Below, piece after piece: positions 5,054-17,078 of a DNA stretch of 24,574 bases (the stretch's first letter is position 1; each line of letters starts with the position of its first letter). The notes under the pieces were generated by a model. That model had not been told where the DNA came from, searched no databases, and saw only the letters and a program-made list of their open reading frames with translations. This stretch comes from a virus (lineage: Duplodnaviria > Caudoviricetes). The translations under genes and the position numbers were made by a program. The stretch spans positions 1-24,574 of IMG/VR virus record IMGVR_UViG_3300044568_001207; one strand, written 5' to 3'.

Positions 5054-5082
5054 TTGACATCTTTCCAAAAGTCTGTTATAAT
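5054..5082 (+). promoter_or_regulatory. Consensus sigma70 promoter driving the tRNA/ncRNA operon
   Basis: TTGACA (5054-5059), 17-nt spacer, TATAAT (5077-5082), with extended -10 TG at 5074-5075. Confidence 0.9.
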
Positions 5083-5101: not shown

Positions 5102-5186
5102 GCCGGCTTGCGCAGAGTGGGATTGCACCTGACTTGTAATCAGGCTTCGTAAGATAGAGAGTGTTCGATTCACTCAGCCGGCACCA
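5102..5186 (+). tRNA. tRNA-Thr(UGU), atypical (long variable arm)
   Basis: Acceptor GCCGGCT/AGCCGGC, anticodon arm CCTGA-CTTGTAA-TCAGG (TGT 5135-5137), T arm GAGTG-TTCGATT-CACTC, encoded A-CCA end. 14-nt variable region. Confidence 0.85.
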
Positions 5187-5192
5187 AATATT

Positions 5193-5828
5193 ATGAAAAT
5201 ATGTACAAAATGCGGTAAAGAATTTGATGCCTATAGCAAATGGGGTGAAAAGAAATTTTGCTCTAGGAGTTGTGGAAACAGTAGAACGTTTAGTAAAGAA
5301 TCACGAGAAAAAACCAGCGCAACTTTGCAGAAGTATAACGACAGCCTAACACCACAAGAAAAACGAGACAAGTTTGAAGTAGCTAAAAGCAAATATGATT
5401 ATGATGATATGCAACGTCGAGCTAAGGAAACTAAGATAAAGAAATCCTGGGATAGACCATATGAAGAAATGAGCCGAGAGGCTCTAAAGAAAAGGATATT
5501 GCACGAAAGTAATTACAAATGTGAAATGTGTGGTATAAGTGATTGGCAAGACAAACCTATAACTTTAGAAATAGATCACATAGATGGTGATCCATTTAAT
5601 AATAATAGAAAAAATTTAAGAATACTTTGCCCTAATTGCCACAGTCAAACGCACACATATAGAGCTAAGAATATTAAGATCAATAGAAGAGAATTAAATT
5701 TAGAGTTGTTAGAAGAAATGTTAAGGATACATAAGTATGCAACGCCTGCGTTACGTGCTATGGGATTAGCAAACAGCCCAAAACGTATAAAAGCCGCAAA
5801 TGAGATATTAAGTAGACTTAACTTTTAA
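5193..5828 (+). CDS. Free-standing HNH (homing-type) endonuclease
   Basis: CEMCG...LEIDHIDGDPFNNNRKNLRILCPNCHSQT HNH core. N-terminal CTKC...FCSRSC Zn module followed by a NUMOD3-like FSKESREKTS segment. Confidence 0.9.
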   Translation: MKICTKCGKEFDAYSKWGEKKFCSRSCGNSRTFSKESREKTSATLQKYNDSLTPQEKRDKFEVAKSKYDYDDMQRRAKETKIKKSWDRPYEEMSREALKKRILHESNYKCEMCGISDWQDKPITLEIDHIDGDPFNNNRKNLRILCPNCHSQTHTYRAKNIKINRRELNLELLEEMLRIHKYATPALRAMGLANSPKRIKAANEILSRLNF

Positions 5829-5872
5829 GAGTCGCTGACATTCCGGAATGTCCCCGTATAGAGTAAGCGGGA

Positions 5873-5995
5873 TTATTAGTATAGGGTTCTCAGCCAATCA
5901 ATATTATGATATATGCGGACTAATTCTAGATAGCTAGCTTCCGATGGGTCATATGCTACGGTTGCAACTGTAGCACGAGAACTCTATACTAATGA
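5873..5995 (+). ncRNA. Unannotated structured RNA (three-way junction, 6S-like architecture)
   Basis: 19-bp closing stem 5873-5891/5977-5995, unpaired AGCCAATCAATAT (5892-5904), imperfect hairpin 5905-5953 and 9-bp hairpin 5954-5975. The stems use G-U pairs. It lies within a tRNA operon with no ORF over it. Confidence 0.6.
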
Positions 5996-5999
5996 ACAA

Positions 6000-6087
6000 G
6001 GAAACGTGGCCGAGTGGTCGAAGGCACTTCACTGCTAACGAAGCAAACCGAAAGGTTTCGAGAGTTCGAATCTCTCCGTTTCCGCCA
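6000..6087 (+). tRNA. tRNA-Ser(GCU)
   Basis: Acceptor GGAAACG/CGTTTCC, anticodon GCT 6034-6036, long variable arm AAACC-GAAA-GGTTT, TTCGAAT T loop, G73, CCA. Confidence 0.95.
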
Positions 6088-6360: not shown

Positions 6361-6534
6361 ATGTCAAAAGACACCAAACAACAAGAGTTAGAAGAATCAC
6401 AGGCAATAGATCTTGCTATGAAAAAGTTTTTAGCAAATGGTGGCGTCGTACAACAAATTGCCCGAGGAGTCAGCGGTGTAGAAGAAGGAAGTCCTCAGGC
6501 TGCCTGGGGACGACCTAAGAAAAAAGAAAAATAA
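6361..6534 (+). CDS. 57-aa SutA-like RNA-polymerase-binding protein (not in the ORF track)
   Basis: MSKDTKQQELEESQAIDLAMKKFLANGGVVQQIARGVSGVEEGSPQAAWGRPKKKEK, with AGGA SD near 6350. AMKKFLANGGVVQQI matches my recollection of the Pseudomonas SutA core (AMEEFLSRGGKVQEI). Confidence 0.7.
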   Translation: MSKDTKQQELEESQAIDLAMKKFLANGGVVQQIARGVSGVEEGSPQAAWGRPKKKEK

Positions 6535-6543
6535 TAGATTACT

Positions 6544-6619
6544 GCTCCCATCGTCTAGAGGCCTAGGACACCCGCCTTTCACGCAGGTAACACGAGTTCG
6601 AATCTCGTTGGGAGTACCA
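6544..6619 (+). tRNA. tRNA-Glu(UUC)
   Basis: Acceptor GCTCCCA/TGGGAGT, Glu-type D arm TCGTCTAGAGGCCTAGGAC, anticodon TTC 6578-6580, T arm ACGAG-TTCGAAT-CTCGT, A-CCA. Confidence 0.95.
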
Positions 6620-6621
6620 AT

Positions 6622-6629
6622 TATAAATA
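6622..6629 (+). promoter_or_regulatory. Putative T4-type late promoter TATAAATA
   Basis: Exact T4 late consensus, 5 nt upstream of ATG 6635. Confidence 0.6.
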
Positions 6630-6634
6630 TGAAT

Positions 6635-7447
6635 ATGCCAAGCCTAGATACCAGAGTAAAACTATTACAAGCATTTGTCTATGTGGGATTCGTCTACACA
6701 CTAGCATATCAGTTTGATCTAACCTTATTTTTAATCAGCTTCTTTATCATTGGTTGGTTAATGACTCTGGTAGGGGTTAGTTGTGGCTTACACAAATACA
6801 GTGCGCACGGTAACTTCAAAGAAAAGCATGTAGCATTTAAGATACTGATGTTGTTCTATGCTACAGTTATGAGTCTAGGCAGTAGTATTGCTTGGTCTAG
6901 CACACATCGTAAACATCATCAAACCAGCGATAAATTAGATGATCCACACAGTCCAAATACCAGTGGTGGTGGGTTCTGGCGCAGTATCAAGTTGTGGTTC
7001 TATTACTTCCCAACATATCATGTTAATCCACGTATAGTTAAAGACCTTAGTGTAGATCCTATACATAAATTTTTCCATAAGAATTACTTCAAAATTGTGG
7101 CCATTTACATTGTTTTATTGTCATTATTTGGCATAAAAGCGGTATGTTATTTGTACTTTGTGCCAGTGGTATATGGATTCCAAGCAACTAGTTATATCAC
7201 AGTTTTGGCACACAATACTTGGTTGGCTAAATTTGGCTATCGTAATTTCAACACTGATGATAAAAGTTTCAACAGCAAGGTAGCGGCAATATTCTGTCCA
7301 TGTGATGGTAATCATAACAATCATCATGGTTGTGCAGGTGCAGCAACTAACAGTTTGAAACCGGGTGATTGGGATACTGGTTATTGGTTTATTCGACTAA
7401 TTGGGCGTGTGCCTGATCAATCAGTGTTTAAGAAATTTAATAACTAA
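6635..7447 (+). CDS. Membrane fatty-acid (delta-9 acyl-CoA/acyl-lipid type) desaturase 1
   Basis: Three His boxes HKYSAH, HRKHH and HNNHH, plus DDPHSP and hydrophobic TM segments. Start moved from 6608 (inside tRNA-Glu) to ATG 6635; ATG 6629 is also possible. Confidence 0.88.
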   Translation: MPSLDTRVKLLQAFVYVGFVYTLAYQFDLTLFLISFFIIGWLMTLVGVSCGLHKYSAHGNFKEKHVAFKILMLFYATVMSLGSSIAWSSTHRKHHQTSDKLDDPHSPNTSGGGFWRSIKLWFYYFPTYHVNPRIVKDLSVDPIHKFFHKNYFKIVAIYIVLLSLFGIKAVCYLYFVPVVYGFQATSYITVLAHNTWLAKFGYRNFNTDDKSFNSKVAAIFCPCDGNHNNHHGCAGAATNSLKPGDWDTGYWFIRLIGRVPDQSVFKKFNN

Positions 7448-8191
7448 TCCTGTAGGATCAAATTTAGTTGCATTGAAGTCACACTGACCTGGATGTGCGT
7501 GATGGCTGTTATGTAATCCTTCCCCAGCAAATAATACTGTAAAAAGTCTACTATCCCAACTACGATCGTTGGTAACAGGATCTATTGGCCCGCTGTGTGC
7601 TATTACAGTTACCCAACTCATACCTAACACCATATAAGTTATTGGTAAGGCAACAAAATAAACAAAATACACAGGACCGCCTAGAAGTAAAACTAGTGCA
7701 GGATATACTGCCCATATCTTCCAATAGTGGTCATGACTTAATCTCATGTCCTCATCTCTGAGAATGTCTACGATCATCTTAGGGCTGGCACTCATCTTAG
7801 GGAAATGATACCAAAACAATTTGAAATTGTGCCAGAAATTATCAGTCAGTTTGAACGGATCCTGATCAGTGTCGCTGTGTACGTGATGTTGTCGATGTGC
7901 AGAGGCAAATCCAGGTACACTACCCAAGGTGCATTGTACACCCAACCATAACAATATCCATTTAATCACACGATTTTTTGGTTCAAAGCTACGATGACAA
8001 GTCCAACGGTGTAGACTCACACTACCACCAACGCAGAATAATAACCAACTAACGGCTAGTCCAGAAAATAACAAACTCCAATCAAATGCAACAATTAGTC
8101 CTGCGATAACTAGGGCGTGCATGACAGATTGTACAAATAAAACCTGTGAATATGTTGACGAATTTTTAATAGTTCTGTATAATGTAAGCAT
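7421..8191 (-). CDS. Membrane fatty-acid desaturase 2
   Basis: His boxes HRWTCH, HRQHH and GEGLHNSHH, plus HSDTDQDP and FDPTG. Start placed at ATG 8191 (MLTLYR...) because TAAATA lies 5 nt upstream; the track start at 8218 is possible. Confidence 0.88.
   Translation of the reverse strand: MLTLYRTIKNSSTYSQVLFVQSVMHALVIAGLIVAFDWSLLFSGLAVSWLLFCVGGSVSLHRWTCHRSFEPKNRVIKWILLWLGVQCTLGSVPGFASAHRQHHVHSDTDQDPFKLTDNFWHNFKLFWYHFPKMSASPKMIVDILRDEDMRLSHDHYWKIWAVYPALVLLLGGPVYFVYFVALPITYMVLGMSWVTVIAHSGPIDPVTNDRSWDSRLFTVLFAGEGLHNSHHAHPGQCDFNATKFDPTGLVIKFLKH
8155..8183 (+). promoter_or_regulatory. Sigma70-type promoter for the 8219 gene, lying inside the 5' end of desaturase 2
   Basis: TTGACG (8155-8160), 17-nt spacer, TATAAT (8178-8183). 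Confidence 0.7.
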
Positions 8192-8196
8192 AACTA

Positions 8197-8202
8197 TATT
8201 TA
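8197..8202 (-). promoter_or_regulatory. Putative late promoter core TAAATA for desaturase 2
   Basis: The minus strand reads TAAATA-TAGTT-ATG, the same 5-nt spacing seen at 6635 and 22240. Confidence 0.45.
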
Positions 8203-8218
8203 CGTTAAACGGAACCAT

Positions 8219-14467: not shown

Positions 14468-14677
14468 ATGGCTAAAACTAATGCAAGTTTCAATATGTCA
14501 AGAGTAACAAAATACAAACTAGCTGGTTACACTGATCCAGTAGCACGTAATCTTTATAAAAAGATGATGATTGATGCTGAAGCAGCATTGGTAGCCGCAA
14601 AAAATCGTAAGTTCAGTGATCCAGCACAAGCACAAAAAGGTGGAAACCGTCCACAACCTACAGAACCACAAGCATAA
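14468..14677 (+). CDS. Small basic hypothetical protein (69 aa)
   Basis: AAGGA SD upstream, phage-like codon usage, TAATG coupling to the next gene. Confidence 0.75.
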   Translation: MAKTNASFNMSRVTKYKLAGYTDPVARNLYKKMMIDAEAALVAAKNRKFSDPAQAQKGGNRPQPTEPQA

Positions 14678-15081
14678 TGGAAAAGAAACTTTGGGATAGT
14701 ATAGACGGTAGCATGCTAAAAAGTCTACCCAACGCGGCCAAGGGATATGAACAGCGTATTAGCGTACCTGAGTTTACATTTCTAGGTGGCGCAAATCAAC
14801 CAGACTTTGGTGATGTTACTATTTGGTTTTATGGTAATGCTAAGACTATTGAATTAAAAAGTCTCAAGCAATACCTATTCCAATACCGTGACACTAGATT
14901 AAGTTACGAACGTGCATTGGATGTTATGTATAAAGATCTTAAAGCAGTATACGAACCAGATCGTATTCGTATAGAAATTGAATATCGCCCTAGAGGCGGC
15001 ATTAGCAGTAGAATGACAGTAGACAGTGACTGGGGCCATCTAGGCGGCACTGATCAAATTTGGCAACATCACAAGGACTAA
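14677..15081 (+). CDS. QueF-like tunnel-fold protein lacking the catalytic cysteine
   Basis: [33 protein letters not shown] and RPRGGI align with unimodular QueF (PEFTSLCPxTGQPDFA / ExKSLKLYxxSFRN / HE / PRGGI). Confidence 0.78.
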
Positions 15082-15082
15082 C

Positions 15083-16369
15083 ATGGATTATAAAATAAAA
15101 GATATAAGTTTGGCGGCTTGGGGGCATAAAGAAATAGCCATCGCTGAAACAGAAATGCCAGGGCTAATAGCCATTAGAGATGAGTTCAAAGAAGCTCAAC
15201 CACTTAAAGGTGCACGTATCTCTGGGTCATTACACATGACTATTCAAACAGCAGTATTGGTTGAAACACTAGTTGCTCTTGGTGCTGAAGTACGTTGGAG
15301 TTCATGTAACATATTTTCAACACAGGATCACGCTGCCGCCGCACTTGCTGATCTGGGTATTCCTGTATTCGCCTGGAAAGGTGAAACAGAAGAAGAATAT
15401 TGGGATTGTATTGAACGCACACTGAGTGGTCCTAATGACTGGCGGCCAAATATGTTACTTGATGATGGACATGATTTAACTTATTATGTACACAAACATC
15501 ACCCAGGCCTATTAGAAGGCATCCGCGGTGTAACAGAAGAAACAACCACAGGTATTCATAAGATCAACGAAGCGATTGCCAAAGGTGAATTTAAGTTACG
15601 TGCTATTAATGTTAATGACAGCGTAACCAAAGCCAAGTTTGATAACTTGTATGGATGCCGTGAATCATTAGTTGACGGCATTAAACGTGCCACTGATGTT
15701 ATGATTGCTGGTAAAGTAGCAGTGGTAGCAGGCTTTGGTGATGTAGGTAAAGGATCAGCTGCCGCACTTCGCGCCTTGTCAGCACAGGTATGGGTAACTG
15801 AGATTGATCCTATCTGCGCACTACAGGCGGCTATGGAAGGTTATCGAGTTGTTACCATGGACTATGCCGCAGATAAGGCAGACATCTTCGTAACAGCCAC
15901 AGGTAATATTGATGTTATCACTCGTGACCATATGGTCAAGATGAAGCACAACAGTATCGTATGTAACATTGGACACTTTGACAGTGAGATCGACATCGCC
16001 GGTATACAAGATCTAGCCTGGGACGAAATCAAGCCACAAGTAGATCATGTTACATTACCAAACGGTAATAAGATCATTATCCTTGCTAAAGGCAGACTAG
16101 TTAACCTAGGTTGTGCTACAGGACATCCAAGTTATGTAATGAGTAATTCATTTACTAACCAAGTTCTAGCACAGATTGAAATGTTCACCAACACTGAAGA
16201 TTATCAGATTGGACATTTATATCTATTACCTAAACATTTGGATGAGAAGGTTGCTCAATTACATCTAGCTAAAGTTGGTGCAGAACTAACAGAGTTAACC
16301 ACTGATCAAGCCACATACATTGGCGTTGCGGTCGCAGGCCCATATAAACCTGATAGTTATCGTTATTAA
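15083..16369 (+). CDS. ahcY: S-adenosyl-L-homocysteine hydrolase
   Basis: [76 protein letters not shown] and C-terminal YRY. Confidence 0.98.
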
Positions 16370-16407
16370 TTGATCATTAAGTAATATTTTAACCTACGGG
16401 TTCTGTA

Positions 16408-16462
16408 TATAAATAAAAACGTGGCTAAAAGGCAACAAAATTTTATTCTGTGGCTTTTTAGC
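16408..16462 (+). promoter_or_regulatory. Late promoter TATAAATA followed by a 5'-leader hairpin
   Basis: TATAAATA at 16408-16415. Imperfect inverted repeat GCTAAAAGGCAACA...TGTGGCTTTTTAGC at 16424-16462. GAGGA SD before 16488. Confidence 0.6.
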
Positions 16463-16487
16463 AACAATTTATAACCGAGGAAACACA

Positions 16488-17078
16488 ATGAAAAAAACTT
16501 TAATCGCAACACTTATCGCTGGCCTATCATTTGGCACAGTAGCAATGGCTGAAGATGGCAAAAACTTTGCTCACATTCAATACACATTCCGAGACACAGT
16601 TTCTGATGACAAAGCTGCACCTAATAGACAAGGTGTTAACTTTACAATTGGCCGCAAAGTGTTAGATAACCTAACAATTGACTTAGGTGAACAATTCCGT
16701 ACTGAACGTCTAAACAATGATGCTGGTGTAAACACAACACGTTTAGAAGCAGGTGCTACATACTCATACAATCTACTTCCAGCTGTGTCATTATACACAC
16801 GTGGTGGTCTAGGCCAGAAGTTTACTTCAAATCAAGACTATACATACTATTCAGTTGAACCGGGTATCAAATACTCTTTAACAGATGCATTAGCAGTTAA
16901 AGCAGGATACCGTTTCCGTGATGCGTTCAATGACTCGTACAATGAAAAAACAAACACAGTGCGATTTGGTGCTGAATACGCTCTTGCTAAAGATCAAGCA
17001 TTAACACTAGGAATTGATCGTAGCTATGGCGCTAGTGACTTCATTGGTTACAATGCAGGTTACATGATCAAGTTCTAA
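16488..17078 (+). CDS. Outer-membrane beta-barrel protein (small porin-like)
   Basis: Sec signal peptide MKKTLIATLIAGLSFGTVAMA, alternating amphipathic aromatic-rich strands, and a C-terminal beta-signal YNAGYMIKF. Confidence 0.85.
   Translation: MKKTLIATLIAGLSFGTVAMAEDGKNFAHIQYTFRDTVSDDKAAPNRQGVNFTIGRKVLDNLTIDLGEQFRTERLNNDAGVNTTRLEAGATYSYNLLPAVSLYTRGGLGQKFTSNQDYTYYSVEPGIKYSLTDALAVKAGYRFRDAFNDSYNEKTNTVRFGAEYALAKDQALTLGIDRSYGASDFIGYNAGYMIKF

Follow-up and report, generated by a model that had tools for sequence, protein, structure and literature searches.

Phage takeover of host RNA polymerase is known to proceed through proteins, among them AsiA, gp55 and Alc. On the bacterial side, the same enzyme is bound by 6S RNA, whose E. 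coli form starts its pRNA at U44 of the RCCRAY motif (PMC3988568). A 78-nt B. subtilis 6S-1 RNA without the -35 region is reported still to bind RNAP and to make pRNA, and E. coli 6S to depend more on the -35 region than 6S-1 does (PMC8876501); small size is therefore no bar to 6S-like action. Two further points of comparison come from stable RNA clusters. The tRNA cluster of phage T4 contains, beside a homing endonuclease, rnaC (species 1) and rnaD (species 2), which are about 120-140 nt long and are labeled "small, stable RNA" in the T4 record. The intervening sequence of a two-piece tmRNA is reported to hold a tRNA-Ala (PMC11915505), and a glnA-like element is predicted at the Melnitz/Mosig ssrA (PMC9004378).

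The element analyzed here lies in a tRNA operon of the window, by which we mean the whole 24,574-nt stretch of viral DNA that was studied. A first-pass annotation, made from the letters alone, had proposed that it encodes a shortened, phage-borne mimic of 6S RNA. In size and setting, among tRNAs and beside a homing endonuclease, it recalls T4 rnaC and rnaD, neither of which matches it in sequence or by model. The order in locus L450 is tRNA-Thr, 2 nt, the RNA, 2 nt, tRNA-Ser, and the HNH gene of the window can consequently be regarded as an insertion (Table 1). A leader similar to the one in the window precedes 7 of the 71 family copies described below; with its two hairpins, it is possibly a stabilizing leader or a tRNA remnant.

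Judged by UvsX, the window is closest to the jumbo phages Phosso, Atu_ph07, CBB, and GAP32 (66-68%), and its DNA is present in lake-water metagenome runs. In a comparison aimed at the host, an AhcY-like ORF showed 62-70% identity across many groups, mostly betaproteobacteria. This ORF is one of several host-like metabolic genes at 6608-8218 and 14677-17078, which also include a fatty-acid desaturase together with an ORF of similar appearance on the other strand, an outer-membrane beta-barrel protein, and a GTP cyclohydrolase/QueF-like protein. A T4-type late promoter sequence, TATAAATA, occurs at 6622 and 16408, just ahead of the desaturase and beta-barrel genes.

Table 1. Features of the RNA element and of the surrounding tRNA operon, in positions of the window
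Feature	Position	Strand	Remarks
Consensus sigma70 promoter, TTGACA-17-TATAAT	5054..5082	+	heads the tRNA operon; 12/12 match; presumably used
tRNA-Thr(UGU)	5102..5186	+	
HNH endonuclease	5193..5828	+	insertion
Two-hairpin leader	5829..5872	+	44 nt; optional
Small RNA gene	5873..5995	+	123 nt
Closing stem, 5' strand	5873..5891	+	pairs with 5977-5995; pairing kept despite varying sequence
Open 5' strand with RCCAAY motif	5892..5904	+	13 nt
Near-invariant 5' core, AUAYAUGCGGA-S-W	5909..5921	+	
Variable apical segment	5922..5935	+	10-40 nt across the family
Near-invariant 3' core, W-S-CU-UCCG-A-YGGGUYA	5936..5951	+	
3' hairpin	5954..5975	+	covarying; right after the conserved YA
Closing stem, 3' strand	5977..5995	+	ends 4 nt before tRNA-Ser
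tRNA-Ser(GCU)	6000..6087	+	an RNase P cut at its 5' end would free the RNA 3' end
57-aa protein with SutA RNAP-binding domain	6361..6534	+	inside the tRNA operon; PF20661, 30.8 bits

The structure at 5873-5995 is real. The minimum free energy (MFE) of the element is -46.5 kcal/mol (z -6.43), none of 200 shuffles was as stable, the MFE and centroid structures agree, and the reverse strand folds more weakly (-35.8, z -4.30). Most of the secondary structure first drawn for the element is borne out: the 19-bp closing stem with its two G-U pairs by sequence and fold, the 13-nt open 5' strand by the fold, in which the mean unpaired probability after the first C is predicted to be 0.86-0.97, and the 9-bp hairpin on the 3' side by fold and covariation alike. 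The apical arm (5905-5953) is a mixed case. It folds as described, and its CGGA-C-U / A-G-(CU)-UCCG helix covaries, but the TATGAT/GTCATA helix, although formed in the window, is restricted within the family to a subclade of 34 of the 71 copies to which the window belongs, and the CTAG-ATAG-CTAG hairpin, also seen in the window fold, sits in the freely variable segment of 10-40 nt.

Pattern scans of viral and metagenome contigs identified 71 distinct family sequences in 211 loci, many of these loci being one contig or strain fetched repeatedly. The scans returned many chance hits; those with both core motifs and the closing stem were kept. A truncated copy (L414) and a divergent copy (L351) were left out of the 71, and genomes G031 and G105 are counted in tallies only. 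The divergent copy (L351:2480-2620) has a much longer apical arm and lies among 14 tRNA/tmRNA genes, in a cluster whose two-piece tmRNA is of the betaproteobacterial type. With automatically placed ends, the median length of the family is 122 nt and its range 94-149 nt. No further clear member emerged when all loci collected were searched with a profile and 66 loci, either rejected or flanking, with the model. When the 3' core alone was used as the pattern, 20 of the 21 hits carried the full 5' core as well, and the invariance of the core is thus not solely an artefact of the pattern.

Covariation was measured against a 31-pair structure after 46 of the 71 copies had been aligned with MAFFT. 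In this alignment 91.7% of cells are paired; the value drops to 79.6% for shuffles and to 30-46% if the structure is slid. Changes on both sides occur in 21 of the 31 pairs, a count inflated by relatedness, and in the same alignment they affect 14 of 19 pairs of the closing stem and 6 of 7 pairs of the 3' hairpin. The two pairs beside the CU bulge are complementary in all 71 copies (C-G in 67 and G-C in 4; U-A in 57 and A-U in 14), and the two Y positions are compatible with G-Y pairing if one A is bulged out and an A-G mismatch is allowed in the register. The open 5' strand, 13-16 nt long in the family, carries RCCAAY immediately after the closing stem in 70 of the 71 copies. The carriers are jumbo and T4-like phages, uncultured, from freshwater and marine sources, and the core sequence is kept across phage lineages with UvsX proteins only 24-26% identical; this is the level at which the T4-like carriers G128, G130, and G131 compare with the window, and G128 and G130 encode the gp55 late sigma factor. 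We identify these copies as a new, covariation-supported family of small phage noncoding RNA genes. Selection at the RNA level, which the first-pass annotation had suspected from the G-U pairs, is upheld by a discrete RNA gene with covarying stems.

The element does not belong to the 6S family. When the window and 20 member loci were scanned against Rfam 15, only tRNA and tmRNA passed the gathering score of any family. The RF00013 model had no match on the window at E<=10 and matched none of seven carrier records, and as controls it found trimmed 6S cores of an alphaproteobacterium (E 0.033) and of E. coli (E 7e-19). An alphaproteobacterial 6S model, built from 28 6S RNAs, detected three of four beta/gamma 6S controls at E<0.01 but the element in none of 23 member loci. 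In the opposite direction, the family model matched 0 of 29 6S genes, and on 61 Limnohabitans-order genomes its best hits had E values of 0.45 and 0.79, neither of them at 6S. Sequence-only HMMs of the 6S core gave no signal with the alphaproteobacterial set, true alpha- and betaproteobacterial 6S RNAs barely cross-scoring, and the betaproteobacterial set gave a mean of -1.0 bits against -1.7 for shuffles in a partially reported comparison of little power. The bulged invariant helix in the apical arm does not align in sequence to the 6S "-35" motif, again in a sequence-only test of low power. Membership in the 6S family, for which a covariance-model scan of Rfam including RF00013 had been suggested as the check, is therefore rejected: no family matched, and all covariance-model tests were negative while their controls were positive.

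The likeness to 6S RNA resides instead in the layout, which is present much as first proposed, with a closing stem, a central bubble, and an apical stem, the 3' side of the bubble consisting of a short linker and a hairpin. A closing stem, an open A-rich 5' strand, and a bulged apical arm are common to 6S and the element, and the closest 6S layout is alphaproteobacterial, in which CA is followed by a pre-formed 3' hairpin, as YA is followed by the hairpin in the element. RCCAAY stands at the stem-bubble junction of the element, and RCCRAY is found in the corresponding region of 30 of 33 betaproteobacterial and 18 of 29 alphaproteobacterial 6S RNAs, these motif likenesses having been picked by eye and after the fact. 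There are differences as well. Unlike 6S, the element is phage encoded, and it measures about 95-150 nt against 155-195 nt; the first-pass annotation had already remarked that it is short, and a median of 122 nt indeed falls outside the 160-200 nt given there as usual. It is without the CUGC/GCGG terminal motifs and the GGGAGC/GCCC of 6S, and no clear counterpart of the -35 motif was recognized. Its closing stem is long and nearly uninterrupted whereas that of 6S is interrupted, and its core is more invariant, base by base, than 6S bubbles are. The E. coli 5' bubble had been given as beginning with AGCCGAT, and this sequence is indeed found in the E. coli 6S record, but its AGCC is paired there and mostly open here. 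More generally, GCC/ACC is paired in 6S and mostly open in the element, so that the predicted start would lie 7 nt into the bubble, compared with 3 nt in 6S.

Searches for relatives beyond the collected loci delimit the family further. Searched by blastn with the element and with a tmRNA-borne copy, 50,697 annotated phage records yielded nothing beyond short matches attributable to chance. In 10 cultured phages of the jumbo or T4-like type, the best hit of the family model had an E value of 4.5 and was not credible. A strict three-part pattern matched 0 stretches in the GTDB collection, although such a pattern would miss diverged cellular relatives. A phage-encoded 6S-like RNA was not found in the literature searched, which was mostly open access and largely represented by titles and summaries. 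The core motifs are absent from the seven supplement files of PMC10690425 that were searched; that work presents 10,006 candidate viral RNAs, and the element could be an unnamed one among them.

With promoter-flush 5' ends and tRNA-flush 3' ends in many copies, the element behaves as a stand-alone RNA gene: the closing stem begins 6-8 nt downstream of a full sigma70-type promoter in 24 of 70 other copies, and 36 of 71 copies end no more than 5 nt from the 5' end of a tRNA. The position of the element differs among tRNA clusters, in a few T4-like genomes it stands just before a start codon, and the genes downstream of family copies are unrelated to one another. In L309 and L326, the copies fill the excised spacer of a permuted two-piece tmRNA. 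These permuted phage tmRNAs (L309:2396-2807, with the tag ANDNVAFAGYALAA, and L326) are comparable to other two-piece tmRNAs with an RNA module inside the permuted precursor, but their spacer RNA has no glnA or tRNA match and the Mosig spacer is unrelated. Other structured sequences were observed next to the element. Directly after it, at L390:2572-2628 and in nine other T4-like loci, lies a second conserved structured RNA of about 55 nt, which is closed by a long stem, may contain an H-type pseudoknot, and has no Rfam match in the loci scanned; just 3' of it in L418 and L453 are 180-300 nt of conserved noncoding sequence with hairpins, likewise without an Rfam match.

Among six RNA runs, contigs from two (X19 and X22) cover close variants of the element. 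The match of two X19 contigs breaks off at 5872 and 5993, a weak hint of discrete ends, as the library may contain DNA and the flanks may be divergent. The element is uncovered in the other four runs (X20, X21, X23, and X24), from whose contigs absence cannot be read. Excision of the element had been suggested by contigs from X21 and X22 that join tRNA-Leu straight to tRNA-Ser. This idea was dropped: the joint is found in no IMG/VR contig, and tRNA-Leu is directly joined to tRNA-Ser in nine metagenome DNA loci, so rearranged clusters explain it.

The 57-aa ORF downstream of the element matches PF20661 above the cut-off of 29.3 bits (E 1.9e-7), and SutA is reported to bind the RNAP beta subunit and to assist the opening of promoters when Pseudomonas is limited for nutrients (PMC9300723). 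In a range of 2.5 kb around the RNA, close SutA-like homologues occur near 20 of 71 copies, DsbA near 13, an omega-like gene near 2, and a WYL_2 Sm-like gene near 14. SutA-like, omega-like, or DsbA genes accompany 34 of 71 copies, and 23 of the 42 whose flanks extend 1 kb or more in both directions, a signal that is confounded because the copies are related and tRNA/tmRNA clusters adjoin transcription genes in such phages anyway; for the remaining copies, including that of G128, none of the three is in range. Melnitz ssrA, for one, is described as lying just upstream of a transcription coactivator (PMC9004378). The SutA-like copies in relatives are 81-93% identical to that of the window, a weaker form below the cut-off is found near three T4-like copies, and the protein is absent from the 10 cultured phages and five bacterial genomes searched. 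In L406 (3157-3396) and L432, the tRNA cluster encodes a phage omega-subunit-like protein that matches PF01192 just above the cut-off.

We consider the leading explanation, with a probability of roughly 0.4, to be that the element is a miniature 6S-like open-promoter mimic which binds the host sigma70 holoenzyme. If it is a promoter mimic, it would be a 6S analogue or a heavily remodelled derivative. It can be hypothesized that the RNA would be transcribed from a sigma70 promoter and released by tRNA processing, with RNase P acting at the next tRNA or tmRNA. Its open A-rich strand would then enter the active-site cleft, flanked upstream by the bulged invariant helix and downstream by the closing stem. 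Synthesis of pRNA would begin at the last base of the RCCAAY motif, a Y that would always template a purine; in the window the predicted start is U5898. The RNA would thereby damp sigma70 transcription, its own included, while the SutA-like, omega-like, and gp55/DsbA proteins could steer polymerase to phage promoters in slow-growing hosts. Against such a decoy it may be argued that trapped holoenzyme would also remove core that gp55 needs.

Nearly as likely as the 6S-like reading is that the element belongs to a new class of stable RNAs and that its invariant bulged helix and open strand are bound by another protein. The partner could be a host RNA-binding or defense protein for which the RNA acts as a decoy, or a phage component such as the gp55 late complex or the Sm-like protein WYL_2. 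A core that is invariant across lineages so divergent in UvsX (24-26% identity) fits such a partner equally well, 6S homology is undetectable, WYL_2 genes lie near 14 of 71 copies, and the position among tRNAs is that of T4 rnaC and rnaD; however, no partner gene accompanies all clades, and the 6S-like layout together with the RCCAAY motif would be left unexplained. The length of the conserved single strand could also speak for a small RNA that pairs through its open 5' strand with a conserved host or phage RNA. We regard this as improbable, as exact sense or antisense matches reach at most 9 nt to 16S, 23S, and 5S rRNA of E. coli and five other proteobacteria, exact matches to five 6S RNAs are no longer than this, and the complete carrier genome G128 has no second site of more than 11 nt. 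Resemblances to rRNA helices had been seen by eye and proved no better than chance.

It is less probable again that the element is cis acting, a processing spacer, or a small mobile element with terminal inverted repeats, even though its position shifts within tRNA clusters, nine loci have tRNA-Leu joined to tRNA-Ser, and a few T4-like genomes carry it just before a start codon. The repeats vary and the interior is invariant, which is the reverse of a mobile element, 24 of 70 copies have their own promoter flush with the 5' end, and the downstream neighbors have nothing in common. Retrons, finally, are recognized by a long msd hairpin, an AG after the 5' repeat, and an invariant branching G. 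The first-pass annotation had mentioned an orphan retron-like template for reverse transcription, on the grounds that an inverted repeat followed by AG is present in the window; the same resemblance to msr-msd, terminal repeats with AG after the 5' one, extends to most copies. A role of this kind is very unlikely, since the long msd hairpin is missing, the branching position is G in 61 copies but A in 9 and U in 1, and no reverse transcriptase accompanies the element, RVT_1 having no match in five of five carrier records, the complete G128 among them.

Returning to the 6S-like mimic, a more far-reaching and more tentative proposal can be derived from it. A miniature RNA that acts as a decoy for host RNA polymerase might be encoded by phages of at least two distant lineages and be transcribed together with SutA-like and omega-like proteins, forming with them a kit for the takeover of transcription in starved cells; its long, uninterrupted closing stem may slow release.

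Even if the 6S reading fails, the analysis reveals an uncatalogued RNA family in abundant lake phages, one that moves between phage lineages, uses tRNA and tmRNA processing, and bears on a long-standing question, the function of the additional stable RNAs that phage tRNA clusters carry. If the reading is true, the element would be a naturally minimized 6S whose core is invariant, offering a direct way of finding out which features 6S needs for binding and release, and an RNA promoter mimic would represent a new route of polymerase takeover.
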